64,000 nucleotides of DNA from Acidobacteriota bacterium (GTDB taxonomy: Bacteria; Acidobacteriota; Polarisedimenticolia; Gp22-AA2). The translations under genes and the position numbers were made by a program. The DNA lies in assembly GCA_031394595.1 (NCBI GenBank), contig JANNTZ010000191.1, positions 72 through 64,071 on the forward strand, written 5' to 3'. The notes below the pieces were generated by a model, which was not told the DNA's origin, ran no database searches, and saw only the letters and a list, made by a program, of their open reading frames with translations. The stretch's first letter is position 1; the number at the start of each line of letters is the position of its first letter. Positions 1 through 41,321 of this stretch are shown piece by piece.

Positions 1-1472
1 GTCGGTGTGGTCGTCATGATGACGCCGTCGCTGAAGTCGCTCTGGGTCGCCTTCTTAATCTTGTAACCCAGAATGTCGCGCAGGATGGCGTTGCCGCCGA
101 TGGTGTCCGGTTCGTTCGCCAGTGCCGCGGTGTTCGCCTGGACCTCGTCCCACTGGATCAGGACCTGGCTGTCGAGAGGAGTGATCGTCCCGTTGCCGGT
201 GGCGCGGACGTTCAACGGTGTCGCCGGCGTGGTGCTGTTCGACAGCGCCGCGCAGGGCGCGCCCGTCGTGGGGGCCCAGCCGCTGGAGTTGCCGGCGGAA
301 TCCTTGGACTGGACCTGGAAGCACCAGGTGCCGCTCGCCAGGTTGTCATAGAAGGCGTGGGCGTCATAGTCCACGGTGCCGTATTCCTGGTGCGGGTGGG
401 TGAAGCCGCGGGTCGCGAAATTGGTCGGCGACCCGTTCGGCCAGGATTTGACCGACCAGGCGGTGACCCCGGAGGTCGAACCCGGCGGGTCCCATTTCAC
501 CAGGATGCCGCCGCAGTGACCCGGGACCAGGGAGACGTTGGTCGGCGCCGGCGGCGGGGTGATGTCGATGTCCTTGACACCCGATCGGCCGAGGTTCTCG
601 GCGTTGACGTCCGACGACAGGTCGAACTTGCGGAAATGCTGCGCCGCGGCGTCGGCGGTGTCGATGTAGTCCGGGTCTTCGTCCGCCGTCATCCCGACCA
701 GGTTGACCGCGATCCGGCGGACCCGCGCGCGGGTCAGGATCGCCGCGTCGCCACCGCCGATGTCATCGGCGGAACTGGCCGGCGTGTTGGCGTTCAGCAG
801 CACGCCGCTGTCGTCGTAGTACTGGAACGTCATGCTGCGGATGTTCTCGGCCACCGGCTCGAAGACGAACGAGGTGCTGTTCGGCGGGGTCGCCGGGAAG
901 GTCGCCACGTCGGCCAGCGACACGCGGTACAAGGTGTACGGCGGGCTGTCCTGCACCAGGGCGACGTTGGAAATGGTCACGTTCTTCAGGGTCTTGGTCC
1001 GCGGCCGGTCGACATCGGCGCGTAGCGCCATAGTGGCCGGGCCGCTGACACCCGGTTTCGCCAGGACGTACGAGACGATCTCGTCGTTGCCGGTCGAAAC
1101 GATGCTGTAGGCGGTCCCGGGGAGCGACGCCTCCGGGGTGGTGCTGGCGGTCGGATCCTCGAAATCGAAGTCGCCGCGGATGGTGACCGCCGTGTCCCAG
1201 GCCCCCTCGACCTGCTCGTCGATGCGTGTCGTGTCGCCGTCCGGGTTCCAGTTGAACCCGGCCAGACGCAGGTCCGAGAGCATCCGGTCGAAGGCGACCC
1301 GGGTTGACTGCTGCTGGTCGGTGAAGTTCTCGCCCGCCTTGTAGGACTTCTGGGCGGCGGTGTAAAGGATGAACGCCACCGCGGCGGCGATCGCGAAGAT
1401 CGTCGAGGCGACCAACATCTCGATCAAGCTGAACCCACCAACTTCACGCCGGACTTCCTTGGACCTGAGCAC
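1..1472 (-). CDS. Large type IV pilin-like (prepilin N-terminal cleavage/methylation motif) protein, C-terminus runs off window; periplasmic part with Fn3/Ig-like repeats (partial, >490 aa)
   Basis: Manual minus-strand translation in the high-GC3 frame: GTG at 1472 preceded by GGAGGA RBS gives MLRSKEVRREVGG|FSLIEMLVASTIFAIAAAVAFILY, a canonical prepilin leader and hydrophobic helix. The downstream sequence (PPAPTNVSLVPGHCGGILVKWDPPGSTSGVTAWSV..., WCFQVQSKDSAGNSSGWAP) looks like beta-sandwich repeats. The ORF continues past coordinate 1 and is absent from the ORF track because it is truncated. Confidence 0.55.
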   Translation of the reverse strand, partial: MLRSKEVRREVGGFSLIEMLVASTIFAIAAAVAFILYTAAQKSYKAGENFTDQQQSTRVAFDRMLSDLRLAGFNWNPDGDTTRIDEQVEGAWDTAVTIRGDFDFEDPTASTTPEASLPGTAYSIVSTGNDEIVSYVLAKPGVSGPATMALRADVDRPRTKTLKNVTISNVALVQDSPPYTLYRVSLADVATFPATPPNSTSFVFEPVAENIRSMTFQYYDDSGVLLNANTPASSADDIGGGDAAILTRARVRRIAVNLVGMTADEDPDYIDTADAAAQHFRKFDLSSDVNAENLGRSGVKDIDITPPPAPTNVSLVPGHCGGILVKWDPPGSTSGVTAWSVKSWPNGSPTNFATRGFTHPHQEYGTVDYDAHAFYDNLASGTWCFQVQSKDSAGNSSGWAPTTGAPCAALSNSTTPATPLNVRATGNGTITPLDSQVLIQWDEVQANTAALANEPDTIGGNAILRDILGYKIKKATQSDFSDGVIMTTTP

Positions 1473-1516
1473 CGCCGTCCTCCATGCCGCCGCCCGTCAG
1501 GGCGACGGATTCGTTT

Positions 1517-1966
1517 TCAGAACCTGGTGGTCGACAGTCGCACCGTCTGCGGCCGTCCCAGTTCGTTCCACGTCAAGTTGACATTGATCCGGATCCCGGT
1601 CGCGCTGCCGAAGTTCGGCGTCCCGGCTCCCATCGGCGTGATCGCCACTGACGCCACGCCGCCTTCCAGCTTGCGGCTGATCTCGGTCTGCCAGGCTTCG
1701 ATGGCGCTGCCGCTGACATTGCTGAACACCGTGTGCGTGGTCGCGGTCGACGCCGCTCCGAGGTCGACGTAGAGCGCCGTGAACGAGCGGGTGTCGAACG
1801 ACTCCATGATGTCGTGACACAGGGCGGTCGCCTGGGTCATCGTCTTGCCGACCTTCACCTGCCGCCCGCCCAACAGGAACATCGAGGAGATCGACACCAG
1901 GACCCCGGACAGAACACCGATCGCGATGATGACTTCAATCAGGCTGAATCCCTTTTCCTGTTTCAT
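1517..1966 (-). CDS. Minor pilin / pseudopilin (prepilin-type N-terminal domain)
   Basis: N-terminus MKQEKG|FSLIEVIIAIGVLSGVLV is a classic prepilin peptidase motif. GAGGA RBS sits 5 nt upstream of ATG 1966. An alternative ATG at 1978 overlaps the upstream stop as ATGA. The listed ORF 1517..2551 has a spurious upstream extension. Confidence 0.65.
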   Translation of the reverse strand: MKQEKGFSLIEVIIAIGVLSGVLVSISSMFLLGGRQVKVGKTMTQATALCHDIMESFDTRSFTALYVDLGAASTATTHTVFSNVSGSAIEAWQTEISRKLEGGVASVAITPMGAGTPNFGSATGIRINVNLTWNELGRPQTVRLSTTRF

Positions 1967-1974: not shown

Positions 1975-2481
1975 TCATGGCGTGTAGGTGGCGTACGTCG
2001 ACGAGACCTGGCCGGTCGGCGTGACGCTGACCGTGTAACGGTCCCCGCGCGACCCGTTGATGTCCATGCTGAAGATGACGTTCAGCGTGGAGGTCACCGT
2101 CGTGCTCCCCCTGTTGGTGAACGCGACGCTGGTGGCGCTGGTATTCTCGATTTCCACGCCGTCGAACTGGACCGTCATCGTCCGGCCGAGCGGATTGAGA
2201 TAGGAATACTGGTTCGGCGCGGTCGAATGGTCGACCCGGTTGATCGTGAGGGTGCGGGTGGCGCGGTTGGTCACCGCCAGGTAACGCTGCGCCCGTATGT
2301 CGGTCGTCAGGTTGTTGGCCGCGGCGCGCACCTTGTACGACTTGTAGGCGTCGGCGAGGGCGGGACCGGCGAATAGGGTGAAGATCCCCAGCAGCGCGAT
2401 CACGACCAGGAGCTCGGACAGCGAGTAGCCGGCCGCCCGCCGATCCCGATCCATCTGCGCTTCCCTGCCTCGAGTTTCCAT
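1975..2481 (-). CDS. Minor pilin / pseudopilin (GspH/FimT-like prepilin-type protein)
   Basis: Contains ...MDRDRRAAG|YSLSELLVVIALLGIFTLFAGPA, a prepilin motif. ATG 2481 has a GGAGGA RBS 4 nt upstream. An alternative start at 2454 would give an 8-aa leader. Confidence 0.6.
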   Translation of the reverse strand: METRGREAQMDRDRRAAGYSLSELLVVIALLGIFTLFAGPALADAYKSYKVRAAANNLTTDIRAQRYLAVTNRATRTLTINRVDHSTAPNQYSYLNPLGRTMTVQFDGVEIENTSATSVAFTNRGSTTVTSTLNVIFSMDINGSRGDRYTVSVTPTGQVSSTYATYTP

Positions 2482-2659: not shown

Positions 2660-4594
2660 TCAGAGAAGCGGGGCGCCGGCCTGATCGCCGGTCCGCCCCG
2701 GGAGGACGATCACCAGCCGTGCGCCGCCACCCGGACGGTTGGCGGCCTCGGCCATGCCGTCGTGCAGGACGGCGATCTTCTGGACGATCGCCAACCCGAG
2801 CCCGGTGCCGCGGTCCTTGGTGGTGAAGAAGGGGGTGAAGACGCGGGGCAGGTCCTCGGGCGGGATCCCGGGGCCGTCATCCTCCACGACGAGACGGAAC
2901 AACCCATCGCCCGGTCCCACCTCCCCGCGAATGACGATGTGGCCGGCACTGGTGGCCGCCCCGTCACGATCGCGGATCGCCTCCGCGGCGTTGCGGACCA
3001 GGTTGTGAATCGCCTGGCGGAGGAGTCGCGGGTCGGCCCACAGACGTGGAAAGGTCCCCTCGACCGTGATCGCGATCCCCCCGACCTGGGGATCGTCGCG
3101 GAGGTCGCGCGCCAGGTCGCGGACGATGGTTGCCGATTCCACCGGCGCGACGTCGAGACGCTCGGGACGGGCGAACTGCAGGAAGTCCTGGACTACCTTC
3201 TCGACGTCGTGGATCTCCCGCAGGATAGTCTCGGCGTTTTCCCGCACCGCCGTGTGCCCGTTGCCGTCCGCCGGCAGACCGCGGACGATCAGCCGGGCCA
3301 GACCCTGGATGGTGGCCAGGGAATTGCGGAATTCGTGCGCGATCCCGGCCGACATCTCCCCCAGCGCCGCGAGGTTGTCCCGGATTCCGACCCGCTCGCG
3401 CAGCGTCTTGATCTCGGTCAGGTCGGCCAGCAGACACAGGACCCCCTCGATCGCCTCCCCGGGGCCGCCGGCCCCGCTCCGGATCGGCGAGACCATGGCG
3501 CCGAGATGGGCGGCGCGCCCACCCGGCCCGGAAAGCGGCACCATCTCCCGTGAAAACGCTTCGCCGTTCCGCAGCGACCTCCCCACCAGGTCGACGAGTC
3601 GATCGGCGCCGCCGATCAAGTCGCCGTATTTCCGGCCGATTGCCGAGGAGCGCTGCAGCCCGAGCAGCGCCTCGGCGGCCGGATTGAGGACGGTGAGCCG
3701 GCCGTCACCATCGAACACCAGCACGGCGCTGCTCATCCCTCCGACCAGGTGGTCGCCCGGCAGGATCCGGGGGTCGGGCGTTCCGCCGGCCGGACGCTTC
3801 AAGCGCTGCAGTTCCCCCTCCTGATCGCGCAGCTTGTCGAGCACCCCCTGGAACGCTCCGACCAGCCAGTCGGGCTCGTCCCGCGGTGCCGCCCCGCCGA
3901 TCCCGGCCAGCGCGCCGGGCGCCTGCCCCGCGGCGCGCATCAGGCGCCGGTAGGGCTGCATCAGCCAGCGGGCAAAACCGACCACCAGCCCCACCAGGAA
4001 CAGCAGACTGACCGCCTGGACCCCCGCGATCAACAGGAGATTGAAATGCACCGCCGCCAGGACCGGCACCTCCGACTGCACCCGGACGATCGCGAGGGTG
4101 GCACGACTGCGGTCCTGGATCGGGCGGTAGGCGGCGAGTCGGGCCCGACGGGACTGTGGTCCCCTCTCCACTTCGGACAGCACGCCGGCGCCGGACAGCA
4201 ACCGGCGACGGTCACCGTCCCGGGACGCCAGGAACGGATCGTCGTGACCGACGCGGGTCGCATCGGACGACGACAGGACATGACCGTCGAGGTTCAGGAT
4301 CTCGACGGCGGTCATTCCCTTGAGACGTGCCAGGCGATCGAGGAAGGTCGGCGGGATGTAGGGAACGGCGCCCGCCGGTTCGCGCAGACCGCGCAGCATC
4401 TGGTCGCGCTCCAGTTCGACCCTGATCAAGTCGGCCTCCAGGAGCAGCCGCCGTCCGGTCTCGTCCTCGATGGCGTCGCGCGCCGTCATCAGGAGCTGCA
4501 CGTTGAGCAGGATGGCGGCCGCCAGGAACAGGACCAGGAGTCCCAGGACGATCTTGATCTGCCCTTCGTACGACCCGAGCGGCGAGATCTTCAC
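2660..4594 (-). CDS. Sensor histidine kinase (2 TM, PAS, HisKA, HATPase_c), PilS2-like orphan kinase
   Basis: HisKA H-box EMSAGIAHEFRNSLATIQGL and HATPase motifs VEDDGPGIPPEDLPRVFTPFFTTKDRGTGLGLAIV. N-terminal TM helix IVLGLLVLFLAAAILL. GTG start at 4594 overlaps the pilD stop as GTGA. The ORF-track N-terminal 107 aa is a spurious extension into pilD. Confidence 0.75.
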   Translation of the reverse strand: MKISPLGSYEGQIKIVLGLLVLFLAAAILLNVQLLMTARDAIEDETGRRLLLEADLIRVELERDQMLRGLREPAGAVPYIPPTFLDRLARLKGMTAVEILNLDGHVLSSSDATRVGHDDPFLASRDGDRRRLLSGAGVLSEVERGPQSRRARLAAYRPIQDRSRATLAIVRVQSEVPVLAAVHFNLLLIAGVQAVSLLFLVGLVVGFARWLMQPYRRLMRAAGQAPGALAGIGGAAPRDEPDWLVGAFQGVLDKLRDQEGELQRLKRPAGGTPDPRILPGDHLVGGMSSAVLVFDGDGRLTVLNPAAEALLGLQRSSAIGRKYGDLIGGADRLVDLVGRSLRNGEAFSREMVPLSGPGGRAAHLGAMVSPIRSGAGGPGEAIEGVLCLLADLTEIKTLRERVGIRDNLAALGEMSAGIAHEFRNSLATIQGLARLIVRGLPADGNGHTAVRENAETILREIHDVEKVVQDFLQFARPERLDVAPVESATIVRDLARDLRDDPQVGGIAITVEGTFPRLWADPRLLRQAIHNLVRNAAEAIRDRDGAATSAGHIVIRGEVGPGDGLFRLVVEDDGPGIPPEDLPRVFTPFFTTKDRGTGLGLAIVQKIAVLHDGMAEAANRPGGGARLVIVLPGRTGDQAGAPLL

Positions 4595-5430
4595 GGCCCG
4601 AACCCGGCGAGACCGAGGTACCAGTCGACCCACGGGCGTCCGACGAGGATGGCCACGATCCCGGCGGCGCCGAGAAAGACCCCGAGCGGCAGGCGCGACT
4701 TCCAGCCGTAACCCCGCAGCCGCATCAGGGCCAGCCCGACGACGGCTCCTGCAATATTGCCGAGGAACAGGACGAACAGCAGGACCGCGGGGCCGAGGAA
4801 GGCGCCGATCATCGCCAGGAGCTTGAAGTCCCCCTGGCCGATCCCGTCCTCGCGTGCGGCCCGCGGCACCCGCCGGATCGCCTGCCAGGCGTGGTACAGG
4901 GCGTTGATCGCCCACGGGATGGCGTAACCGAGAAGGGCGCCGGCGAACGCCTCCCGCACCGGGCCCTCCGGTCCGATCAGGCTCCCGGCGCCGGGGCGCA
5001 GGAGACTGAAGGCCAGACCGACGGCGATCCCGGGGAGCGTCAGGGCGTCGGGCAGGATCTGGTGCCGGTAGTCGATGATCATCAGCGCGATGAGCGATGC
5101 GCCAAGCCAGGCCTGGTCAAGAAACGCCGGGGTCGGGCCGCGCAGCAGGAACAGCACGAGAAACAGCAGCGCCGTCGCCGCCTCCACCGCCGGGTAAGTC
5201 CAGGCGATCGGCGCCCGGCACCGGCGGCAGCGGGCGCCGAGGAGGATCCACGAGAGGACCGGCAGGTTGTCGTACCAGGCGATCGGTGCGGCACAGGCCG
5301 GGCAGGAGGACCGCGGATGGACGATCGACCGCCGTTCCGGCATCCGGTGGATGCAGACGTTCAAGAACGATCCGACACAGGCGCCGAGCGCGGCGGCGAA
5401 GGCGGCGAGCGCGGCTGGTGGCAGGATCAC
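4591..5430 (-). CDS. pilD: Prepilin peptidase (A24 family, PilD/GspO)
   Basis: CPACAAPIAW...CRRCRAPI zinc-binding tetra-Cys region and DGIGQGDFKLLAMIGAFLG catalytic-region motif. Multiple TM segments; 279 aa. Confidence 0.85.
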   Translation of the reverse strand: MILPPAALAAFAAALGACVGSFLNVCIHRMPERRSIVHPRSSCPACAAPIAWYDNLPVLSWILLGARCRRCRAPIAWTYPAVEAATALLFLVLFLLRGPTPAFLDQAWLGASLIALMIIDYRHQILPDALTLPGIAVGLAFSLLRPGAGSLIGPEGPVREAFAGALLGYAIPWAINALYHAWQAIRRVPRAAREDGIGQGDFKLLAMIGAFLGPAVLLFVLFLGNIAGAVVGLALMRLRGYGWKSRLPLGVFLGAAGIVAILVGRPWVDWYLGLAGFGP

Positions 5431-5440: not shown

Positions 5441-6298
5441 TCAACGTCCCACGACCGGGACGCCGGTATAGTCGACCGCTCCGCGCGCCGGATCGTAACG
5501 GTACGGGCGGTCCTCCGGGTCGGCCGGCATCCGGCCCAGGAAGCCTCCGGCCACCAGCGCCGCGAGACGCCTGGGCGGCGCGCCGTGCCGGGCGCGCCAG
5601 GCCTCGATCGCCAGGCGTAATTCAGCGAGGTCCACCGCGACCTTCAGATCGTGGATGTGGTTCCACGCCACCTGGCGGGTGTACGCGTCGTCGCTCGTGT
5701 CGTGAATCTCGATCCACAGGCGGAGCGCGGCGCGCGGGTCGCCGGATTTATCCACCATCGCCGCACGCAGACGCCGGACCAGCGGATGGACGTCCGGCGC
5801 CGCCAGCGCCTTTTCGAAGTAGACCGCGGCCCGATCGTAGTCGCGCAGGTCCTGGTAGCAGATGAAGCCGGCCTCGAAGGCGAGGACCCAGCGCCCGGGG
5901 TTGTTGGCGATGCCGGTGTCGAGCAGACGCAACGCCATCTCCGGGTCTTTGGCCTCGACGTTCATGATCAGGGCGCCGATCAGATAGGGATCGATGAAAT
6001 GGGGGTCGAGCTCGGCGATGACCCGCCGGTAGATGTGATCGAGGTGGGCGTAGCGGTCCGCGATGTCATAGTGCCCGTAGTACTGGATCGACCAGATATA
6101 GATCAGGTCGGCGAGCAATCCATCGAAACCGATCGCCGCCACGTCGAGATAACGGCCCGACGGCAGATAGAGGAGCGGGCTGGTTTCGGGCCGGGCGGCG
6201 GCCCGCGTCTCGATCGCCCCCTGCACCAGGACCGCCAGCAGCAGCGCCCCTCCGCCCGCGAGCAGGAGAAGACGGCGCGGTCCCTTCCCGCCGCTCAC
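5441..6298 (-). CDS. Membrane-anchored TPR-like protein, ABC-transporter accessory (PilG-like position)
   Basis: GTG 6298 overlaps the permease stop as GTGA. N-terminal TM (RRLLLLAGGGALLLAVLV) followed by a helical repeat-rich domain. Function unknown; placement between the ABC permease and pilD mirrors M. xanthus pilG/H/I. Confidence 0.45.
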   Translation of the reverse strand: MSGGKGPRRLLLLAGGGALLLAVLVQGAIETRAAARPETSPLLYLPSGRYLDVAAIGFDGLLADLIYIWSIQYYGHYDIADRYAHLDHIYRRVIAELDPHFIDPYLIGALIMNVEAKDPEMALRLLDTGIANNPGRWVLAFEAGFICYQDLRDYDRAAVYFEKALAAPDVHPLVRRLRAAMVDKSGDPRAALRLWIEIHDTSDDAYTRQVAWNHIHDLKVAVDLAELRLAIEAWRARHGAPPRRLAALVAGGFLGRMPADPEDRPYRYDPARGAVDYTGVPVVGR

Positions 6299-9171: not shown

Positions 9172-11082
9172 TCAAGCCGCCGCCCGCGCGCCCGGCGCGC
9201 CGCGCCGGCGGAGCCAGAGCTCGAGCACCAGGAGGGTCCAGATCATCTCGTCGTAGTTGCGCTGGCCCGATCGGTGGATCTTGAGGACCGCCGCCACCGC
9301 ATCGCGATTCAGGTAGTCGCGCGATCGGGCGGCGGGCCCGAGCAGCAGATCGGCAGCCGCGCCATACAGATCGCCACGGAACCAATGGTCCAACGGCAGA
9401 CCGAACCCGGCCTTGCGGCGCCGCAGCACCGCTTCCGGGAGCCGCCCACGATACAGACGGCGCAGGAACAGCTTGCCGGTCCGCAGACCGACCTTGCGGC
9501 GCACCGGCAGTCGCGCCGCGAACTCCACGATCCGGTGATCGAGAAACGGCGACCGCAGTTCGAGACCGGACGCCATCGAGGTGATGTCCGCCTTGAACAG
9601 CAGATCGTCGGGCAGGTAGTGCTCCTGGTCGGCGCGCAGGACGTGCTCCAGGGTTGCGTCGCCGCCGAAATCGTTCGGGATCCGCCCCAGCGCCTGCGTC
9701 GGGTCGATCGCCACGACCCGGGCGGCGAATTCCGGCCGGTAGAGACGCGCGATCCGCCGGGCCCCCGGGTTGGCCATCCACAGGGCGTTGCGCTCGCGGG
9801 CCGGCATCTCCCAGCCCTCCAGGAAGCGTCGCAGCCGCCCCGGCAGATTGCGGCGGTTACGCTCGCTCGACATCGCCTCCAGCAGGGCGTAGAACGGGGT
9901 GCGCGACACGACCCCCGGCAGCCACCCGAATCGATCCGCCAGACGGTGGGCGCGATAGCGATCGTACCCGCCGAACGCCTCGTCGCCGCCGTCGCCGGTC
10001 AGGGCCACCTTGACGTGACGGGCCACGGCGCGCGCCAGGATCCAGCACGACAGCGCCGACGGATCGGCGAACGGGATTCCCATGTGACCGATCAGCGTCT
10101 CGAGATCGTCGAGGCGGCAGGCCGGCAGGACGATCTCCTCCAGGGCAATCCCGAAGCGTCGCGCCACCGCACGGGCCGCCGGCCGCTCGTCGTAGTCGGC
10201 CTCCGCGAACCCGGCGGTGAAGGCGCGGAACCCGGCTGCGTGACCGCGGCGGATGTGCCAGGCGACCGCCGCCGAGTCGAGCCCTCCGGAGAGCAGCAGC
10301 GCCACCGGGACATCGCTGCGCAGCCGAATGCGGACGGCATCGTCCATCAGCGCCACGAACTTGTCGGCGGTCCCGCGGGTCCGTTCGCGGTCCTCGACGT
10401 GGGGGGCCGCGATCGACCAATAGCGATCGAGGCGTGCCCGCCCCTGCTCCCAGATTAACAAGTGCGCCGGTGGCAACTGGCGGATCCCCTCGTACGCGGT
10501 GCCAGGACAGGGCACGTAGCGCAGGGCCAGGAGGTGGTGGATCGCCTCCGGATCGGGCGCCGGCGCGAACCCGGGCTCCGCGAGCAGCGCCGGCACTTCC
10601 GAGGCGAACCGCAGGCCATCCGGCGCGACCCGGTACACCAGCGGCTTGACCCCGAGACGGTCGCGTACCAGGACCATCCGGCCGAAGCGGGCGTCCCACA
10701 AGGCGAAGGCGAACATCCCGATGATCCGACGCACCGCCCCCAGCCCTTCCGCCAGGTACAGCTGCAGCAGGACCTCGGTGTCGGAGCTCGATCGGAAGCG
10801 GATGCCGTGCCGCTTCAGCTCCTCCCGCAGTTCGACGTGGTTGTAGATCTCGCCGTTGAAGACCAGCGCCACCTGCCCGTCCGCGGCCGTCATCGGCATG
10901 CGACCCTGCGGCGACAGGTCGACGATCGCCAGGCGTCGGCTGGCAAGACCGAAGCCGGGGCCGGCGTGCTCGCCGGCGTCGTCCGGCCCACGGTGGGCGA
11001 CGGCATCCCCCATGAGTTTCAGGAGATTCGGATCGGGGACCCGGCCCGGATCGTTGAAGGCGATGCCCGCCAGACCGCACAT
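9172..11082 (-). CDS. asnB: Asparagine synthetase (glutamine-hydrolysing) family amidotransferase, WbpS-like
   Basis: N-terminal MCGLAGIA (Cys2 nucleophile). Class-II glutamine amidotransferase motifs RGPDD and GEIYNH. Synthetase PP-loop SGGLDS. ATG 11082 verified. Confidence 0.85.
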   Translation of the reverse strand: MCGLAGIAFNDPGRVPDPNLLKLMGDAVAHRGPDDAGEHAGPGFGLASRRLAIVDLSPQGRMPMTAADGQVALVFNGEIYNHVELREELKRHGIRFRSSSDTEVLLQLYLAEGLGAVRRIIGMFAFALWDARFGRMVLVRDRLGVKPLVYRVAPDGLRFASEVPALLAEPGFAPAPDPEAIHHLLALRYVPCPGTAYEGIRQLPPAHLLIWEQGRARLDRYWSIAAPHVEDRERTRGTADKFVALMDDAVRIRLRSDVPVALLLSGGLDSAAVAWHIRRGHAAGFRAFTAGFAEADYDERPAARAVARRFGIALEEIVLPACRLDDLETLIGHMGIPFADPSALSCWILARAVARHVKVALTGDGGDEAFGGYDRYRAHRLADRFGWLPGVVSRTPFYALLEAMSSERNRRNLPGRLRRFLEGWEMPARERNALWMANPGARRIARLYRPEFAARVVAIDPTQALGRIPNDFGGDATLEHVLRADQEHYLPDDLLFKADITSMASGLELRSPFLDHRIVEFAARLPVRRKVGLRTGKLFLRRLYRGRLPEAVLRRRKAGFGLPLDHWFRGDLYGAAADLLLGPAARSRDYLNRDAVAAVLKIHRSGQRNYDEMIWTLLVLELWLRRRGAPGARAAA

Positions 11083-11092
11083 GCCCGCCCCC

Positions 11093-12439
11093 TCAGCCGG
11101 CCCGGCGCGCCGCTGGAAGCGGCAGGAACAGGGGCCGGATCCGCTCCGCGACCTGCATCCCGGCCTGGATGGCGGTCTCCATCGACGAGTACTCCCACGA
11201 TCCGAAGCGCCCGGTCGAGTGGATGCCGTGATCGCCAAGCGCCGCGAGGATGCGCGGCACGTGCGCGGCACGGTGACGGTCGTAGATGACGTAGGCGGGG
11301 TCGAGGACCTGGACCCGCCGGTACACGATCCGGTCGCCGCGCCTCAGGATCCCGGCCCGGCGGAGATCTTCCACCGCCCGGTCCACCACCTCCGCCTCGT
11401 CGAACGGCTCGTCGCGCAGGAACGATCGCTCGGCGTAGATCGGCGAGCAGCCGCGGGGCGCCAGGGTGTCGGAGAGGTTCCCGGGAAAGCCGGCGCGGTA
11501 GATCGAGTACCCGGGTTCGGGGAAGTAGATCCAGTGGGCGTCGGACACCGGCGTGCGGTCGACGCCGAGGCTGATGTTGAGCACCCGCACCGCGCGGAGT
11601 CCCCGCCCCGCGGCCGGCAGATCTTCAGGAAGACCCCGGGCGATCGCCAGGAGCCGGTCGAGCGGGATCGTCGAGACCAACGATTCCCACTGCAGGACGC
11701 TGCCGTCGTCGAGCGTGACGGTCCGGGCCCGGACATCGAGACTGATCGCCGACCGGCCGGTCCGGATCTCCGGGCAGTCGGCCGCCAGGGCGTCCGGCAG
11801 GGCGCGGATCCCGCCACGTTTCGGATACAGGAAGGTCGGGTTGTAGCCGAGCCCGCGCACCGTCTTTCCGAAGGCCCCCTCCAGCACCTCGCGGATCTGC
11901 GGCCGTGGCACCGACCAGGAGACCCACCCGCATTCCACCTGGTCCAGGTCCACGCGCCAGAGTTTGGCGTTGTAGGGGAGCATGAAGTGCCGGGCGATCC
12001 CGGATCCGAACGTCAGCCCGGCCCACTCCCGGAAGCTGGTGCGCGACAGATCGGGCTCCCCCTCGGCCGCGCGTCGCACCTGCGACTCGACAAAGCCGGT
12101 GAGACATTCAAGAACCACTTCCTGCGGCAGACCGTGGAGGTTGGCCTGGAAGGGATAGGCGGTGAACACCCCGTGGGAGAAAATCTGCGCCCGCCGTTCG
12201 TGACGCGCCAGGGCGCCGGGCAGCAGGCGTTCCACGAGCGCCTGCACCCGGGCATCCCGCAGGTGGAGCAGGTGGCCGGTGCAGTCGAAGGCGAAGCCGT
12301 TCTCCGCGTGGGTGCGGGTGAGACCGCCAATTTCGTTCTCCCGCTCGACCACCAGGCTCGGCACCGGGCGGAGATGGGACGCCGCCGACAGGCCTGCCAG
12401 GCCGCCGCCGAGGACCACCACCGGATACGTCGCGCTCAT
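11093..12439 (-). CDS. FAD/NAD(P)-binding oxidoreductase (amine-oxidase / UDP-galactopyranose-mutase-like fold)
   Basis: Rossmann motif VVVLGGGLAGLSAA. FMLPYNAKLW resembles the Glf family. Confidence 0.55.
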   Translation of the reverse strand: MSATYPVVVLGGGLAGLSAASHLRPVPSLVVERENEIGGLTRTHAENGFAFDCTGHLLHLRDARVQALVERLLPGALARHERRAQIFSHGVFTAYPFQANLHGLPQEVVLECLTGFVESQVRRAAEGEPDLSRTSFREWAGLTFGSGIARHFMLPYNAKLWRVDLDQVECGWVSWSVPRPQIREVLEGAFGKTVRGLGYNPTFLYPKRGGIRALPDALAADCPEIRTGRSAISLDVRARTVTLDDGSVLQWESLVSTIPLDRLLAIARGLPEDLPAAGRGLRAVRVLNISLGVDRTPVSDAHWIYFPEPGYSIYRAGFPGNLSDTLAPRGCSPIYAERSFLRDEPFDEAEVVDRAVEDLRRAGILRRGDRIVYRRVQVLDPAYVIYDRHRAAHVPRILAALGDHGIHSTGRFGSWEYSSMETAIQAGMQVAERIRPLFLPLPAARRAG

Positions 12440-12452
12440 CGTCCGGTCATCC

Positions 12453-13496
12453 TCATAACGACATGTCGATGCGTTTCAGGAACGCCGCTAGGCCGATCGA
12501 TCCGGCGACGATGCCGGCCAGGATCGCCGCCGCGCCCCGGGTGCCCGACATCATCATGGCGATCGCCAGGAGCCCCAGCAGCAGCGTCGCGCCCCAGGAC
12601 GCCAGGACCGTCTGCCGCGTGGTCAGTCGCCATTTCCGGACCCGCAGCGCGACGTGGTCGGGGCTGCCGAGCATCACCGGCAGCCCGCGCCGGTGGCGGA
12701 TGTACATGACGAACAGCATGTCGAAGACCGGCACCCCGAGGATCACCACCGGCGCCACCGAGGCGACCAGGTTCTCCCGGGTGTAGGAGTTGTTCATCCC
12801 GAGCGCCCCGAGCATCAACCCGATGAACATGCTGCCGGTGTCGCCCATGTAGATCCGGGCCGGCTGGACGTTGAAGCGCAGGAACCCGACCAGCGATCCG
12901 CAAAGGGCGGCAAGCACCAGCGCGTGGGTTTCGCGGCCGTTCATGACCGCCACCACGAACAGCACCAGCGCGGCGCAGGCCGCCACTCCCGCCGCCAGCC
13001 CGTCCATGATGTCGATCAGGTTGAAGGCGTTGGTGATCGCCAGGAGCCACACGAACGACAGGACGATCGCCACCGGCTCGGGCAGGAAGGCCAGCTTGAT
13101 GTAGATGGAGGCGTTCATCAGGGTCAGGACCGCGATCACCTGGCCCGCCAGCTTGACGCCGGGCGCCAGGACACCGAAGTCGTCCACCAGACCGAGGATT
13201 ACGACGATGGCGCCGGCGAGCAGAAGACCGAGGATCTCGGTCGAGTCGAAGCGCAGCGTCGCGGTCAACGCGAGAAGGAACGACAGGTAGATGGCGATCC
13301 CGCCGAGATAGGGCACCGGCTCGGCCTGGGTCTTCAGGCGGCCGTCCGGATGGTCGACGATTCCGAAGCGGATCGCCGCGGCGCGCAGGATCGGCGTGGT
13401 GTACAGGGCGAGGACCAGCGCCACACCGAACGCCAGCAGACAGAGCAGCATCCGGGGCTGGAGAAACGCCGCCATCGACCAGGCGCCGGCCGTCAT
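12453..13496 (-). CDS. Polyprenyl-phosphate N-acetylhexosamine-1-phosphate transferase (WecA/WbpL/MraY family), initiating glycosyltransferase
   Basis: 10-11 TM helices and DDxxD-like VDDFGVL. NAFNLIDIMDGLAAG and YMGDTGSMFIG motifs. ATG 13496 overlaps the upstream stop as ATGA. The alternative frame 12436..13794 is rejected. Confidence 0.8.
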   Translation of the reverse strand: MTAGAWSMAAFLQPRMLLCLLAFGVALVLALYTTPILRAAAIRFGIVDHPDGRLKTQAEPVPYLGGIAIYLSFLLALTATLRFDSTEILGLLLAGAIVVILGLVDDFGVLAPGVKLAGQVIAVLTLMNASIYIKLAFLPEPVAIVLSFVWLLAITNAFNLIDIMDGLAAGVAACAALVLFVVAVMNGRETHALVLAALCGSLVGFLRFNVQPARIYMGDTGSMFIGLMLGALGMNNSYTRENLVASVAPVVILGVPVFDMLFVMYIRHRRGLPVMLGSPDHVALRVRKWRLTTRQTVLASWGATLLLGLLAIAMMMSGTRGAAAILAGIVAGSIGLAAFLKRIDMSL

Positions 13497-14746
13497 CTCC
13501 CCTCCCGCGCCGCCGACAACCGGTCCTGGAGGATCGATCGGTACAGGGCCGCCGTCTCCCCGACCAGCCGATCGATCCCGAATTCCGCCACCACCCGATC
13601 CCGCCCGGCGCATCCCAGACGCGCGGCCCGGTCGCGATCGCGCAGCAGTGCAGCGCAGGCGGATGCGAGGGCCACCGGGTCGCCCGGCGGCACCAGCAGA
13701 CCGGTCTCTCCGTCGCGCACCACCTCGGGCATGCCGCCGACACGGCTGGCGACCACCGGCCGGCCGGCCGCCATCGCCTCGAGCAGGGTGACACCGAACC
13801 CCTCCCACAGCGACGGCTGCACGAACAGATCCAGGGCGGTCATCACCTCGCCGATGTCCCGCCGCGTTCCCGCGAACACCGTGCGGTGGCTGACCCCCTC
13901 ACGCGTGGCGCACGCTTCGATCGCGGCCCGCGCCGGCCCGTCCCCGACCACCGCGAAACGCACCCGCGGCAGATCGCGCGCCAGGATCCGGGCCGCCGCG
14001 AAGAACACCGGCAAACCCTTCTTCGGCTCGTCCAGCCGGCCGACCGTGCCGATCAGCAGATCGGCCGGGCCGGCCCCGAGCTCGTGCCGCACCCGTTCGC
14101 GCGCCGCCGCCCCGCCCGGTTCGGCCGCCAGATCGGTGGCATTCATCAGGGTGCGGACCCGCCCCGGCGACAGGCCGTAAGTGCGCATCGCATAACGCCG
14201 CACCGCCTCCGAACAGGTCAGGACGAGGTCCGACAACGGCGCGGTGGCGCGTTCCGCCAGACGATGATGCGGGCCCATCCAGACGTCGGTGTCGTGATGG
14301 CTCGTCAGGATCACCGGCACCCCCGCGATCCTTCCGATCACCCGCGCCGCGAGGTTGGCGTGGAACAGGTGGGAGTGCAGGATCTGCACCCGCTCGCGGC
14401 GCAGCAGCGCCAGCAGCCGGCCGACGGCCCGCAGGTCGGTGGCGCCGCGCGATCCGAGGGCCACCGCCCGGACGCCGCGCGCCTCCAACTCGTCTCCCAC
14501 CAGGTCCCACCCCTTGAGGCAGGCGACCGTCACCTCGAACCCGAGCTTTTGCAGGCGGGGGGCGGTCATCAGGACCAGTTGCTCGGCTCCGCCGATCGTG
14601 AAGCCCACGGTCAGCACCAGGACGCGCGGCCTGCCGATCCCCGGGACCGGGAGGATCGCCTCCTGCGGCGCGCCGAACGCAACCGCGGATCGGACCGGCG
14701 GCCCGGTCTCCGGGGTGATGTGGCGGATGGCCGGGACGGCGCTCAT
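13493..14746 (-). CDS. Glycosyltransferase family 4
   Basis: C-terminal SLWEGFGVTLLEAMAAGRPVVASRVGGMPEVV. ATGA coupling at both ends. Confidence 0.8.
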   Translation of the reverse strand: MSAVPAIRHITPETGPPVRSAVAFGAPQEAILPVPGIGRPRVLVLTVGFTIGGAEQLVLMTAPRLQKLGFEVTVACLKGWDLVGDELEARGVRAVALGSRGATDLRAVGRLLALLRRERVQILHSHLFHANLAARVIGRIAGVPVILTSHHDTDVWMGPHHRLAERATAPLSDLVLTCSEAVRRYAMRTYGLSPGRVRTLMNATDLAAEPGGAAARERVRHELGAGPADLLIGTVGRLDEPKKGLPVFFAAARILARDLPRVRFAVVGDGPARAAIEACATREGVSHRTVFAGTRRDIGEVMTALDLFVQPSLWEGFGVTLLEAMAAGRPVVASRVGGMPEVVRDGETGLLVPPGDPVALASACAALLRDRDRAARLGCAGRDRVVAEFGIDRLVGETAALYRSILQDRLSAAREGR

Positions 14747-15948
14747 GCCCGCCCTCCGCCCATGCCGGCGGCGGCCTCGCCTGCCGCAAACCTCTCCGGC
14801 GCCGAACCTGTCTCTCCGAGCACCCGTCGATAAACCGCGTCCACCCGCGCCGCGCCGGCGGCAAGCGAGAAGTTTTCGACCACCGACCGCCGGGCGGCCG
14901 CGCCGAGTTGCGCCGCCAGACCGGGGGTGCCGATCAGCCGCTGCATGGCAGCCGCGAGCGCCACCGGGTCGGCGGGTGGAACGATCAGCCCGGTGGCGCC
15001 GTCGGTGACCACGTCCTCGACCCCCACGGCCCGGGCCGCGACCACCGGGATCGACATCGCCATCGCCTCCAGCAGGGCCTGCGGCAGTCCTTCCCAGAGC
15101 GACGGGAGAACGAACAGATCGAGGGACGCGAGGATCGCGGGGACATCGCGGCGGTGGCCGAGGAAGATCACCCGCCCGTCGATCCCGGCCCGCCGCGCTT
15201 CATCCTCGAGGCGCGCGCGCTCCGGACCCTCGCCGGCAATCACCAGGAGGGCGCCGGGATGATCGACGAGCAGCCTCCCGAAGGCGCGCAGGAGATGCAC
15301 TTGCCCTTTCTGCGGCGCCAGGCGCCCGACTGTACCGATCACCGGCGCCTGTCCGTCCGCACCGATCGCGGCCCGCGCCTCGGCGCGGCCCGGGGCCCGA
15401 CCCCCGATGTCGGGGTCGACGCCGTTGCCGACGACCACCATGCGGCGCCGCGGCAGGTGCTCGACGTTCTCCAGGAACCGGGCGAGTCCCTCCGACACCA
15501 CGATGGTCGCGTCGGCTGCCTCGTAGGCCAGCCTTTCGAGGACCAGGAAGGGATAGCGCTTCCAGGTCCGCTGCTGCCGGAAGTCGTCGGCGTTCTGCTT
15601 GGTGGTCACGACCGCCCGCGCCCCTCCCAGCCGCGCCGCACAGGTCCCGTAGTAGTCGGCGAGGTCCATCTGCGTGTGCACCAGATCGATTCGGTCCCGG
15701 CGCACCAGCCGCACCAGGCGCCAGAGCGCCGCGGGGTCGACGGTCCCGCGCGTCCCGATCGCGACCACCGGGAAGCCGGCTGCCTCGAATTCCGGCGCCA
15801 GGACCGGCTCGCCCCTCAGGCAGGCGACGCGCAGGTCGTAGCGCCGCGGATCAAGATGCTGCAGGAGTCGCAGCAGCGCCATCTCCGTGCCACCCGGGAG
15901 CAGGGTCGCAATCACGTGCAGGACACGCACCCGGTCCGGAACGTTCAT
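14743..15948 (-). CDS. Glycosyltransferase family 4
   Basis: SLWEGLPQALLEAMAMSIPVVAARAVGVEDVV. N-terminal VLHVIATLLPGGTE. Confidence 0.8.
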   Translation of the reverse strand: MNVPDRVRVLHVIATLLPGGTEMALLRLLQHLDPRRYDLRVACLRGEPVLAPEFEAAGFPVVAIGTRGTVDPAALWRLVRLVRRDRIDLVHTQMDLADYYGTCAARLGGARAVVTTKQNADDFRQQRTWKRYPFLVLERLAYEAADATIVVSEGLARFLENVEHLPRRRMVVVGNGVDPDIGGRAPGRAEARAAIGADGQAPVIGTVGRLAPQKGQVHLLRAFGRLLVDHPGALLVIAGEGPERARLEDEARRAGIDGRVIFLGHRRDVPAILASLDLFVLPSLWEGLPQALLEAMAMSIPVVAARAVGVEDVVTDGATGLIVPPADPVALAAAMQRLIGTPGLAAQLGAAARRSVVENFSLAAGAARVDAVYRRVLGETGSAPERFAAGEAAAGMGGGRA

Positions 15949-17186
15949 CGACCGGCCCTCGCCTGCAGGGCCACGCCGCCGGGTTCCGGCGCCACCGCGC
16001 GATCCTTCTCCCCGGAGTCGATTCGCGGAAACGTCAGCCCGAGATCGCCGATCGCCCGTCGCACCTGGGCGAACCGATCGTCCCAGGTGTTTCGTCGCGC
16101 GTACTCCTGTCGCCGCGCCCGATTTTCAGGAGCCTCCAGCCGGCTGGCCTCCAGGGCGTCGGCGAACTCCGCCGGCGTACCCGCAGACCGGATCGGAGCC
16201 CGCATCGCGAGGGTTTCCTGGAGCGGCGCCGACACCACCGGGATCCCGGCGGCGCAGTATTCGTAGACCTTGATCGGGTGGATGGCATGCGTCATCGGTC
16301 CGGGGGCGAACGGCATGATCCCGGCGTCGGCATGGGCGGTGTAAGCGGGCAGATCGTCGTACCGCCGTGGCCCCAGCAGGCCGACGTTCGGCAGCGGGGC
16401 CAGGGCGCGGAGATCGGTCCGCACCGGCCCGATCAGGACGAACGACCAGCGCGGCAGCCGCCGCGCCACGGCCGCGATCAAGGCGGCATCGAACCACCAG
16501 TCGAGGCTGCCGATGTAAAGCGCCCGCGGCCGCGGCCAGCGGGCCAGATCGGCCGGCTCCGGCCGACCGCCCTGGAGGAACGGTTCCGGATCGCAGCCGT
16601 TCGGCACGTGCAGGACCCGGGTCGCCCCCAGGGCTCGGGCCCGCTCCGCGAGCGCGCCGGCGGTGACGATCACCAGGTCGGCGCGGCGGCAGGTCTCCGC
16701 CTCGATCGCCGCGAACTTCGAAGGCGTGTCGGGAAAGGACGCGGTATCGTCGCTCATCCGGTAGACGGCGGCACGGCGCGGCAGGTCGTCCATCAATCCC
16801 AGGAGCGGCGCCCCCGGCGACATCCAGAGCAGGTCGAGGTCTGCGAACCCGGCACGCGCCAGCACCCGCGTCAATCGTGGGGTCGTGGCGCGCAGCGTGC
16901 GGCGCTGCACCCACGGCCGGTCCAGGAGCGGATAGGGCCGGTGCGGCAGCCAGGTCATCGGAGCGTAGGCGAACTGACTCGCGCCCTCGCGCCATTCCCC
17001 GCCGCGCCGCCACAGCCGGAGACGGGCATCGGTCTCCGCGTTGCGCCGCAGCAGATTGACCGGCGAGAGCGGTCCGGCGCACCACGCCACGCGGGCCCCG
17101 TGGCGCAGGAAGCGCGCCGCGAAATGATGACCGCCGACCCGGATCGGGCCCCCGGGGGCGAAATGTTCCCACATCAGGATATTCAC
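15945..17186 (-). CDS. Glycosyltransferase (GT1/GT4-like, retaining GT-B)
   Basis: IKVYEYCAAGIPVVSAPL E-x7-E-like motif. GTG 17186 overlaps the upstream stop as GTGA. An alternative ATG is at 17174. Confidence 0.6.
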   Translation of the reverse strand: MNILMWEHFAPGGPIRVGGHHFAARFLRHGARVAWCAGPLSPVNLLRRNAETDARLRLWRRGGEWREGASQFAYAPMTWLPHRPYPLLDRPWVQRRTLRATTPRLTRVLARAGFADLDLLWMSPGAPLLGLMDDLPRRAAVYRMSDDTASFPDTPSKFAAIEAETCRRADLVIVTAGALAERARALGATRVLHVPNGCDPEPFLQGGRPEPADLARWPRPRALYIGSLDWWFDAALIAAVARRLPRWSFVLIGPVRTDLRALAPLPNVGLLGPRRYDDLPAYTAHADAGIMPFAPGPMTHAIHPIKVYEYCAAGIPVVSAPLQETLAMRAPIRSAGTPAEFADALEASRLEAPENRARRQEYARRNTWDDRFAQVRRAIGDLGLTFPRIDSGEKDRAVAPEPGGVALQARAGR

Positions 17187-19376: not shown

Positions 19377-21434
19377 TCACCCGACGGCCTCCGGCGGCGC
19401 CGCCCCGACACCGACGTCCACCGCGAAACGGAACAGCGTCGGCAGCCGGCCGGACCAGTCGCAGCGCAGGGTGAGCGCCGGTTCCAGCCGGCCATACCCG
19501 GCGGAATAGAGATCCTGCTCGCGCAGCATCAGGGCGCCGTCCGGGCCCGCCAGCCGGCGGATCGCGAAGCGGACCTTCCCGGCGCGGCACAGGGCCGTGA
19601 GGCCGTCCTCCGTCAGGAACGCCTCGGCGCGCGGCGCCAGGTGGAAGAAAATCTCGATCCGGTGCTCACCCCGCCCGTCGAAGAGATCCTCGATCACGAA
19701 CCGGCGGGTGCGCTTGTTCAGGAGCACGATGCGGCGGTGGGTCACCGGATCCGCCAGGCGTCGATAGCCGTGGTGCTCGGCTTCCACCAGATCGAACCCG
19801 GCCCGGGAGACAAAACGGCGCACCACCGGGGCCTCGGTCCCCGGCAGGGCGAACGGCCAGTCGGGCAGGGGGTTGATCTCCTGCCCGTCGACCCGCGCCG
19901 TGCTGTGGGCGGCGGTCGAACGGAACCGCTGTCGCAGCGCCAGGTCGCGGGTGTAGATTCCGGTCCCGGGATCCACCACCAGGTCCTGTCCCTCCGCCTG
20001 GATCTCGAGGCCGAGGGTGTCGTTGTGGCCGTGGGCCCCCTGGCCCCGGAGCCCGGTCGTCCCGGCGTCGAGGAGTGCGTAGAGATCGTCATGGCGGAGG
20101 ACGGCGACCCCGGCCTCCGGGAACAGCCGCCCCGTCACCACGATCCGCCGGGGCGTCCCCTCGGCGCGCAGGCGCTCCGCGAGTTTCGGGCCGAAGAACC
20201 ACCAGGCCTCCTCCCAGCGCGGCCCCGCCAGCCGGAACAGCGCCGGGTCGTCGAAGGCGCAGCCGGCGACCGCCAGCAGATGTCGGTGGTCACGGCGATC
20301 GGCGTCGTAGTCGCCGAGGATCTGCAGACGACCGTCGTCGTTGTCGCCGATCTGGGGCGCCAGGCCGTCCGGCTTGGTGTAGTGGGCCACGTAATCGATC
20401 ATTCCCCGCACCCGCGCCCGCAGTTCCGGCAGACGGTACCCCGACCTCTCGATCAGGAGCAGCGCGGTCAGCGCCATCTCGGTCATCAGGCGGTGGTAGG
20501 AGGTCGAGGCTTCGTAGTCGGCTCCGTCGGCGTGCGTCTGCGCCGCGTTTTCGCGGACGATCTCGGCGATCGCCGTCCCCTTCCACGCATCGGCCTCAGG
20601 AGCGCCGCGGAACAGCACGCCCAGGAACAGCAGCCCCAGCAGGTCGGCGAAGTAGTGGTTGCTGTTGGCATCGCCCGCGCGCTCCAGGTTGGCGGCGATG
20701 AAACGGCCGTGGGCGAAGAGCGCCCGCAGCAGCAGCGAGGCGAAGGGTCGATCCGCCAGCACCTCGGCGCGGAAGAAGGCCCAGCCCCAGGTCCAGTTGA
20801 CGGCGCGGATGGCGACATCCATGGTGCAGACCCAGTTGATCCCGAATCCCGGGCGGTTCGTCTCGATCCAGTCGGTCACCTGGGCGCGGAACTCCTCGTA
20901 ACAGCGCCGATCGCCGGTGATCCAGAAGGCCTGGCCGAGCACCGGCAGGTGCTGGAAGCGCGACAGCTCCCAGGGGACCTTCACGTCCGCCCCCTGCCCG
21001 TAGCCCCGTTCGATCTGCGACCGCAGATCGAGGTAATGCGCCCGGCGGTCCCAGGTCCTTCCCGACACGAAGTCGGCGTGCCACGGCAGGCGGGGCCCGA
21101 GTTCGCAGGGACCCGAACCGAGGAACTCGACGCGATGGGCGCGCACCTGCTCGGCCCGATCCAGGATGCGGGCGCGGCGATCCGGGTGACGGGCAAAAAA
21201 CTCCGCCGTCGCGGTTCGCGACAGGTCGGTGACGAACAGACGCGCGTCGTCCGACAACGCCGCCAGCGCCTCGTCCAGGGTGCCGTAGCGGCCACCCAGG
21301 TCGCGGAGCAGGCCGTGCTCGGAGGGGAGCGCCAGCCGGGTCCGATCCTGTATCCTGCGGACGGCGCGCCCGAAGCGGGTCTTCAGCCCGCGCGCCGCCG
21401 CGATCGGGTCCCGGAGAACCGCGCTCAGTTCCAT
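19377..21434 (-). CDS. Heparinase II/III-like protein (alginate-lyase-like alpha/alpha toroid plus beta-sandwich)
   Basis: 685 aa with the W/H/Y-rich pattern typical of the family (INWVCTMDVAIRAVNW, NHYFADL). Commonly paired with Gfo/Idh/MocA enzymes in surface-glycan loci. Confidence 0.65.
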   Translation of the reverse strand: MELSAVLRDPIAAARGLKTRFGRAVRRIQDRTRLALPSEHGLLRDLGGRYGTLDEALAALSDDARLFVTDLSRTATAEFFARHPDRRARILDRAEQVRAHRVEFLGSGPCELGPRLPWHADFVSGRTWDRRAHYLDLRSQIERGYGQGADVKVPWELSRFQHLPVLGQAFWITGDRRCYEEFRAQVTDWIETNRPGFGINWVCTMDVAIRAVNWTWGWAFFRAEVLADRPFASLLLRALFAHGRFIAANLERAGDANSNHYFADLLGLLFLGVLFRGAPEADAWKGTAIAEIVRENAAQTHADGADYEASTSYHRLMTEMALTALLLIERSGYRLPELRARVRGMIDYVAHYTKPDGLAPQIGDNDDGRLQILGDYDADRRDHRHLLAVAGCAFDDPALFRLAGPRWEEAWWFFGPKLAERLRAEGTPRRIVVTGRLFPEAGVAVLRHDDLYALLDAGTTGLRGQGAHGHNDTLGLEIQAEGQDLVVDPGTGIYTRDLALRQRFRSTAAHSTARVDGQEINPLPDWPFALPGTEAPVVRRFVSRAGFDLVEAEHHGYRRLADPVTHRRIVLLNKRTRRFVIEDLFDGRGEHRIEIFFHLAPRAEAFLTEDGLTALCRAGKVRFAIRRLAGPDGALMLREQDLYSAGYGRLEPALTLRCDWSGRLPTLFRFAVDVGVGAAPPEAVG

Positions 21435-35889: not shown

Positions 35890-37274
<1,385 letters not shown>

Positions 37275-37290
<16 letters not shown>

Positions 37291-41311: not shown

Positions 41312-41321
41312 CCAGGCCTCC

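Follow-up and report, generated by a model that had tools for sequence, protein, structure and literature searches.

A giant, putatively PilW-class pilin with a predicted beta-sandwich rod, probably a pilus-tip adhesin, in a type IVa pilus locus of an Acidobacteriota bacterium

The DNA analysed here, referred to as the window, is a stretch of 64,000 nucleotides from an Acidobacteriota bacterium (contig JANNTZ010000191.1 of assembly GCA_031394595.1, positions 72 to 64,071), and its first 1,472 positions hold the 5' part of a gene for a giant pilin. Read on the minus strand, which the gene shares with a type IVa pilus gene set, this region gives 490 stop-free codons, and the frame is still open at base 1. 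The original prediction, made from the sequence alone, had reported such a frame of more than 490 amino acids (aa) running off the window edge and had also noted its absence from the listing of open reading frames (ORFs), which omits the gene since the frame runs off the window end. The features described below are collected in Table 1.

The gene at the window edge is a real coding gene. Its GTG start is also called on an independent contig (L001; 6919 of 6928 positions identical to the window), which extends the minus-strand pilin frame by 31 nucleotides, or 11 codons, to 501 open codons, and two Logan assemblies (L001 and L002) contain this locus, as shown by an exact-protein look-up with the 149-aa pilin encoded upstream. 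The GC content at third codon positions in the reading frame is 0.91, the ribosome-binding site is intact, and 84 database homologues match the 490-aa fragment (best E 4e-214). The alignment to a complete 920-aa homologue, P0087, covers 488 residues at 70% identity with 3 gaps, and the invariant residues of the family are retained. Relatives with both ends intact are 905-922 aa long and about 70% identical (L006, 922 aa; L008, 908 aa; L012, 912 aa; L013, 913 aa; L019, 911 aa; P0086, 911 aa; P0087, 920 aa), so that about 54% of the protein falls inside the window; these lengths bear out the earlier description of an unusually large prepilin-like protein. A decaying or truncated gene, or a functionless assembly artefact, would agree with this partial length and with the failure to recover the C-terminus, for which metagenome scans with the exact 40-mer at the window edge and with a degenerate pattern for GYKIKKATQSDF returned no match. 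The open frame on two contigs, the third-position composition, the nearly gap-free alignment, the retained invariant residues and ribosome-binding site, and the intact 905-922-aa orthologues in many metagenome-assembled genomes (MAGs) leave that explanation hardly credible.

The protein begins VLRSKEVRREVGG/FSLIEMLVASTIFAIAAAVAF (the slash marks the predicted cleavage site here and below), that is, with a short charged leader up to a glycine, followed by a hydrophobic stretch with glutamate at position +5. Both the proposed class III leader (VLRSKEVRREVGG/FSLIEMLV) and Glu5 of the mature N-terminus, whose absence had been named as a point that would count against a pilin, are present. Pfam N_methyl matches residues 12-34 with 28.5 bits (cut-off 21.2) and NCBIfam TIGR02532 scores 23.3 (cut-off 16.3), and the N-terminus also gives weak NCBIfam matches to GspH, GspI and GspJ. 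The class III signal peptide and, in the predicted model, a pilin fold of helix and beta-sheet are those of a type IV prepilin.

An AlphaFold model of the window's 490 residues (mean predicted local distance difference test, pLDDT, 80.2) has a 54-residue helix at residues 16-69, strands at 88-289 (pLDDT mostly 70-94), a disordered linker at 296-303, and then two beta-sandwiches. The first of these, a fibronectin type III (FN3)-like domain, has Cys320, which is invariant in the family alignment, together with Cys384 and Cys407. A second model was made for P0008, an 848-aa homologue in which about 62 N-terminal residues are absent and the true stop is present (mean pLDDT 83.5), and in it the pilin module is followed by three FN3-like domains and two more beta-sandwiches. 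In these predicted models the FN3-like domains are seven-stranded beta-sandwiches superposable on solved FN3 domains. Pfam fn3 (PF00041) scores the window sequence at 13 bits (E 0.12), under the 25-bit cut-off, and scores the aligned region of orthologues above it (P0087, 29.3 bits; P0002, 30.4 bits; P0027, 41.6 bits). The Fn3/Ig-like repeats that had been proposed from the motifs PPAPTNVSLVPGHCGGILVKWDPP, WSVKSWPNG and WCFQVQSKDSAGNSSGW, all of which are found in the translation, thus correspond in structure prediction and fold searches to FN3- or Ig-like beta-sandwiches that make up the extra mass. Full-length relatives are predicted to carry about 620 extra residues arranged as five beta-sandwiches, of which the window would hold the first one and three-quarter FN3 domains.

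The extension is modular. The family has two forms, complete proteins of about 300 aa that correspond to the first 60% of the query and long proteins of about 700-930 aa, and since the pilin-only relatives of about 300 aa (P0061, P0082) end precisely at the linker, the extension has been added to a pilin that can stand by itself. For members of the close clade, the six domains are identical to those of P0008, from the N- to the C-terminus, at 72, 70, 66, 52, 49 and 57%, and one clade of proteins of about 720 aa is without the terminal domain. For the distal two domains, Pfam returned only sub-threshold matches to HYR, Big_3_3 and Big_13.

The class of the pilin module was assigned through a sister clade. 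Pfam and NCBIfam searches with the window protein, its 34 close relatives and their consensus found no pilin family beyond N_methyl, including no PilW or T2SSJ. A profile built from the pilin module can be aligned, over 296 columns, with a distant sister clade of long forms (hhalign probability 100%, E 1.3e-93), and the consensus pilin module of that clade matches Pfam PilW (PF16074) with 32.1 bits (cut-off 26, E 1.3e-7). N_methyl is matched by all 46 sister-clade members, fn3 by 33 and PilW by 12. We therefore propose a transitive membership, by which the module of the giant pilin would belong to PilW, the GspJ class; at about 290 residues it is similar in size to PilW. Searched as a profile against PDB sequences, the module found no match beyond the N-terminal helix of PilA and geopilin. 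The comparison to GspK and PilX suggested by the original prediction does not fit this assignment, and a GspK/PilX-class identity was ruled out by the presence of Glu5, by the lack of a PilX_N or T2SSK match, and by the occurrence of PilX_N as a separate next gene in relatives. Five of the 46 distant long-form members (the distant members include P0144-P0225) also contain a CBM_5_12 carbohydrate-binding module (best E 3.4e-4), and one matches ChitinaseA_N; the rod carried by the pilin may thus terminate, in some lineages, in a module that binds chitin or cellulose.

The genes around the giant pilin are those of a minor-pilin operon. In L013 a sensor kinase is followed by a GspH-type pilin (27.4 bits, cut-off 21), a small pilin, the orthologue of 913 aa, a PilX_N protein of 632 aa (32.7 bits) and a sigma-54 response regulator, and the order of GspH-like pilin, small pilin, giant pilin and PilX_N is also found in L004, L005 and L006. 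A PilX_N-like gene directly follows the giant pilin in at least 42 of 64 evaluable loci, as counted by a crude motif test. The gene order of the window together with that of its relatives gives the giant pilin the third position of an H-I-J-K operon, and on this basis it would be the J-class (PilW) member of the set. Because the PilX_N gene follows at once in the syntenic loci, the gene is not the last of its operon, as had been supposed from the window, where that neighbor is not visible. The short 300-aa pilin forms also precede a 620-aa PilX_N gene (L061, L078). PilD, encoded three genes upstream of the giant pilin, is the enzyme expected from its family matches to process the leader.

The PilX_N protein of the relatives is itself giant, at 620-880 aa (L004 12142-14007; L013 10753-12651; L005 2570-4003; L006 about 10750-12640), and the usual PilX has roughly 200 aa. 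Its N-terminus reads ...ERGSALxxxLxxxxILxLLGxSYL, it has no sequence relative in the PDB, and, like ComZ or CpaL, it may represent a tip subunit of the K class enlarged by a large additional domain. No PilY1-type gene was found in the relatives' operons inspected (L004, L013), no PilY1/PilC family in Pfam scans of the fragment, P0008, P0002, P0035, P0046, P0027, P0086, P0087 and the L013 orthologue, and no PilY1/PilC among the top 25 families of the 46 distant members. The sigma-54 response regulator that follows pilX in relatives (L013 12689-14716; L006 about 13900-14859) is off the window here; it and the sensor kinase are likely two-component partners that bracket the minor-pilin operon in relatives, distinct from the PilS/PilR-like pair of the window. 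Past the response regulator, L006, the closest MAG, has a small prepilin-like ORF (15456-16484; G/YSVVELLVSLALLG..., about 195 aa) with a borderline N_methyl match, which may belong to a second minor-pilin set.

Table 1. Features of the giant pilin gene and the pilus genes of the window, with coordinates in window positions.
Feature	Coordinates	Strand	Basis
5' part of the giant PilW-type (putative) modular minor pilin gene, 54% (490 of about 910-920 codons)	1-1472	-	Translation, homologues
Shine-Dalgarno-like GGAGGA, 5 nucleotides upstream of the GTG start at 1472	1478-1483	-	Read from sequence
Class III (prepilin) leader, residues 1-13 (VLRSKEVRREVGG), ending at Gly-1	1434-1472	-	Translation
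Mature alpha-1 helix, residues 14-69 (FSLIEMLVASTIF...), Phe+1, Glu+5	1266-1433	-	N_methyl, TIGR02532, AlphaFold helix 16-69
Globular beta-sheet part of the pilin module, residues 70-295	588-1265	-	Family alignment, model strands; matches stand-alone 300-aa relatives
Flexible linker, residues 296-304, into Pro-rich TPPPAP	561-587	-	pLDDT <50 at 296-303; ends of the short forms
First FN3-like domain, residues about 305-405	258-560	-	
Second FN3-like domain, truncated at the window edge (residues about 412-490)	1-239	-	Model strands 420-487; whole in the P0008 model
149-aa minor pilin (MKQEKG/FSLIEV...), PilV/GspI-like by position	1517-1966	-	N_methyl 24.6 bits; TIGR02523 PilV E 3.9e-5, sub-cut-off
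168-aa FimU/GspH-like pilin (G/YSLSE), first of the minor-pilin set	1975-2481	-	N_methyl 25 bits; GspH 17.2 bits, sub-cut-off
PAS-HisKA-HATPase sensor kinase, between pilD and the minor-pilin genes	2660-4594	-	
Prepilin peptidase PilD	4591-5430	-	A24_N_bact 116 bits, Peptidase_A24 73.4 bits
Candidate major pilin PilA (…KREKG/FTLIELLIVVAIIG…), ORF bounds	30949-31479	-	Motif scan; N_methyl 37.9 bits, T2SSG 29 bits
PilS-like kinase and sigma-54 activator (PilR)	35890-38948	-	
PilC	38957-40159	-	
PilT-like ATPase, next to PilB	40178-41395	-	
PilB	41322-43043	-	
PilQ-type secretin with AMIN domain	49157-51820	-	

Members of the family, short or long, come nearly all from Acidobacteriota MAGs. With the pilin-module profile as query, HMMER searched all of 1.84 billion cluster representatives and returned 259 proteins at E<=1e-30. 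Among the best 150 of these, 141 were new representatives, of which 98 are longer than 650 aa (maximum 1574 aa) and 126 have the G/xxxxE motif. A scan of GTDB species representatives gave 113 loci, with a top identity of 69%; most are labelled Acidobacteriota (Candidatus Polarisedimenticolia, Thermoanaerobaculia, Terriglobia), and a few are MAGs with other labels. Relatives are annotated by NCBI as 'prepilin-type N-terminal cleavage/methylation domain-containing protein'. Some MAGs have a second long PilW-FN3 paralogue (L018 10722-12908; L020 5785-6892), followed by a Ser/Thr-kinase-like gene (MS.VGRT.GHY.IEGKLGSGGMGDVYLARD...) in place of the PilX_N gene.

The machinery encoded in the window bears on the question of which kind of filament the protein serves, as the giant pilin could also be an extended GspJ pseudopilin of a type II secretion-like or polysaccharide-export filament, held in the periplasm and contacting cargo or the secretin. 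The match of the candidate major pilin to Pfam T2SSG would fit such a filament, as would the weak matches of the giant pilin's N-terminus to GspH, GspI and GspJ and the position of the pilin genes beside a large glycan-synthesis cluster and an ABC exporter, an arrangement conserved in relatives. Set against this, the PilT-like ATPase by PilB, the AMIN-PilQ secretin, PilN, and the PilS-like kinase with its sigma-54 activator make up a type IVa set, no GspC, GspL or GspM, which are specific to the type II secretion system (T2SS), was found among the window ORFs scanned, and the next gene in relatives matches PilX_N. The ABC transporter, which is encoded like PilN on the strand of the pilus set, lies beside pilD in a layout that we take to resemble the pilGHI arrangement of Myxococcus xanthus. 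We consider a pseudopilin of this kind quite improbable.

The minus-strand region from 7994 to 31479 holds the pilA candidate, two Wzy_C/O-antigen-ligase-like genes (29094-30851 and 27136-29097), and then a glycan-synthesis cluster of about 20 kb that sits between pilA and the ABC transporter with pilD. The cluster includes several GT4 glycosyltransferases, two asparagine synthases, a heparinase II/III-like gene (19377-21434), a GFO/IDH oxidoreductase and an amine oxidase. The loci L003 and L004 keep the glycosyltransferases, amine oxidase, ABC transporter and pilD, and L004 also an asparagine synthase. This could be a pilin-glycosylation or exopolysaccharide island inside the pil locus. A conserved 285-aa protein encoded at 5441-6298 on the minus strand, between the ABC-2 permease and pilD, is also found in L001, L003 and L004 and has a sub-threshold TPR match; its position presumably resembles that of pilG among the Myxococcus pilGHI genes. 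Four further minus-strand ORFs (31589-33406, 23796-25073, 12436-13794 and 47049-47942, encoding 605, 425, 452 and 297 aa) had no Pfam match at the thresholds used.

The reading that we favor, with moderate confidence, is that the giant pilin is a modular core minor pilin of the type IVa pilus-priming and tip complex, with a beta-sandwich stalk and a putative distal binding module; by analogy with known modular pilins, it is probably a pilus-tip adhesin. From what is known of the family, the prepilin would enter the inner membrane via its hydrophobic alpha-1 helix, and PilD would then cut after Gly13 and methylate Phe1, as the motif and the presence of the enzyme lead one to expect. The M. xanthus H-I-J-K and PilY1 priming complex sits in the machine and at the pilus tip (PMC7541494; summarised in PMC9934059). 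Because of the work on Myxococcus, Pseudomonas and the T2SS cited in PMC7541494 and PMC9934059, the gene order here would imply that the giant pilin, the FimU/GspH-like pilin, the PilV-like pilin and the giant PilX_N protein form an H-I-J-K priming complex. Polymerisation of PilA beneath it, driven by PilB, would push the complex out via PilQ so that it caps the pilus, and one copy per pilus would project a stalk estimated at 15-20 nm. This estimate is based on a typical FN3 length of about 3.5-4 nm. We speculate that the distal, least conserved domains bind a ligand, most plausibly a polysaccharide or particle surface. As no PilY1 gene was found in the relatives' operons inspected, the enlarged PilW and PilX may together supply the role of tip adhesin.

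An outward, ligand-binding role is favored because conservation drops from the N- to the C-terminus, because the last domain is gained or lost between clades, and because CBM_5_12 occurs in distant members. The same rod could instead have a structural role in or near the machine, stabilising and licensing a priming complex that lacks PilY1, with no external ligand; it might lie in the periplasmic 'stem/plug' of a non-piliated machine, or act as a clamp onto the giant PilX_N protein. The strongly conserved pairing with the giant PilX_N gene and the operons without PilY1 would suit such a role, and tip complexes are known to require stabilising contacts with the K-class subunit (PMC12918778). 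FN3 domains are, moreover, often mere spacers, and the close clade has no recognisable binding domain. However, the 300-aa forms pair with a 620-aa PilX_N as well, so the extension is not required for pairing, and both the falling C-terminal conservation and the variable last domain are more typical of an outward-facing module; carbohydrate-binding modules also occur in distant members. We therefore regard a purely structural rod as unlikely, while keeping it in view.

We would like to note that several observations weigh against the tip-adhesin reading. In M. xanthus, a PilW3 with a bulky C-terminal sfGFP fusion is incorporated but not exported and blocks the machine, and the authors suggest that it cannot pass PilQ (PMC7541494). 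This finding, which also suits the structural role, means that one cannot take for granted the export of a natural extension of 620 residues. The C-terminal 46% of the window's own gene and its pilX neighbor lie outside the window, and the distal two domains, to which binding would fall, have no meaningful relative among PDB sequences in single-sequence and profile searches. The consensus of the window protein's own clade and the window module itself are without a Pfam PilW match, and the fold searches with whole models returned lists filled with FN3 matches and thus no GspJ or PilW comparison for the module. Lastly, PilY1 could be encoded elsewhere in the genome.

Among known systems, the closest counterparts of the carrier are the PilW/GspJ core minor pilins (FimU-PilVWX of Pseudomonas aeruginosa, cluster_1-3 of M. 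xanthus, and GspHIJK of the T2SS; PMC7541494, PMC9934059), with which the window protein shares the class III leader, Glu5 and the third gene position. Unlike these, its family adds about 620 C-terminal residues in five predicted beta-sandwiches, the relatives examined have no PilY1 gene after PilX, the partner PilX exceeds the usual size three- to fourfold, and the window sequence is too diverged for a direct Pfam PilW or T2SSJ match. GspK, Thermus ComZ and Caulobacter CpaL/TadG are likewise domain-enlarged minor pilins at filament tips (PMC8179133, PMC12918778); there the extra domain is in the K-class subunit, whereas here a subunit placed in the J class has a C-terminal extension and the K-class subunit is the neighboring gene.

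The architecture is that of a modular pilin as defined by Raynaud et al. (2021), with the IPR012902 motif and a linked non-pilus-specific domain. In Streptococcus sanguinis, the modular pilins PilB (pilin plus vWA) and PilC (pilin plus lectin) are part of a tip complex, where they function as adhesins (PMC8179133, PMC9934059). Similar to these, the giant pilin has a short flexible linker to domains that are not pilus-specific, and a predicted tip location. The S. sanguinis proteins, however, come from a monoderm and combine a small pilin module with one domain of known binding activity, in contrast to the diderm host, the large putatively PilW-class carrier and the predicted five-domain rod found here. 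TcpB of Vibrio cholerae is a large type IVb minor pilin like CofB, and these proteins trimerise. CofB, of CFA/III of enterotoxigenic Escherichia coli, is an oversized minor pilin in which a pilin domain and flexible linker are followed by a beta-repeat and a beta-sandwich, and it is a predicted tip adapter or adhesin (PMC8179133). The giant pilin resembles it in this succession of pilin domain, flexible linker and beta-rich domains; unlike it, CofB and TcpB are type IVb proteins that act as a single initiating minor pilin without an H-I-J-K set, no FN3 repeats are reported for them, and no sequence similarity between them and the giant pilin was detected here.

In its proposed role the giant pilin is also like PilY1/PilC, as a large, modular, tip-exposed adhesin on the minor-pilin complex, a parallel that Raynaud et al. 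draw for modular pilins (PMC8179133). PilY1 is a non-pilin with a C-terminal beta-propeller that docks to the K-class pilin by beta-strand complementation (PMC12918778), whereas the giant protein is itself a pilin. Of the suggestion that a PilY1 function had been fused onto a pilin-like stem, what stands is the module on a pilin stem, probably at the tip, which is the published modular-pilin concept; since there is no PilY1 homology, the 'PilY1 function' is only an analogy, and an actual PilY1 fusion was rejected, no PilY1 domain having appeared in any family scan.

The InterPro survey of Raynaud et al. (2021) counted more than 1,200 modular pilins in 264 architectures, and IPR003961 (FN3) is among its 15 most frequent add-ons, in the group without a clear function (PMC8179133). 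The giant PilW-FN3 gene is thus an uncharacterised member of an already catalogued class, pilin plus FN3, and as both the concept and the architecture are in a published survey, its value is incremental. A literature search on minor pilins, PilW and fibronectin type III found no description of the giant PilW-FN3 family, and what we did not find described is the PilW-class carrier, the five-domain rod, the constant pairing with a giant PilX_N, the missing PilY1 and the confinement to Acidobacteriota.

What a cell adheres to is determined by the tips of its type IV pili, and in the diderms studied this task falls to the non-pilin PilY1/PilC. The present family would be a widespread case, in uncultured lineages, of a J-class minor pilin with a beta-sandwich rod, an enlarged K-class partner and an operon without PilY1. 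It is possible, though we find it doubtful, that Polarisedimenticolia, Thermoanaerobaculia and related Acidobacteriota have given up PilY1 entirely and build the tip from two hypertrophied core minor pilins, a PilW with an FN3/Ig rod of 400-1300 residues and a PilX of 620-880 residues. In that case a diderm filament would have its adhesin built in covalently, and a natural C-terminal PilW cargo of at least 60 kDa would thread the PilQ secretin, unlike the artificial PilW-sfGFP in Myxococcus. The family would thus be a natural test of the size of cargo that a core minor pilin can take through the secretin, and of whether diderms replace PilY1 by the strategy of modular pilins demonstrated in the monoderm S. 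sanguinis. It would also offer a clue to how Acidobacteriota of soils and sediments adhere to polymers or particles.

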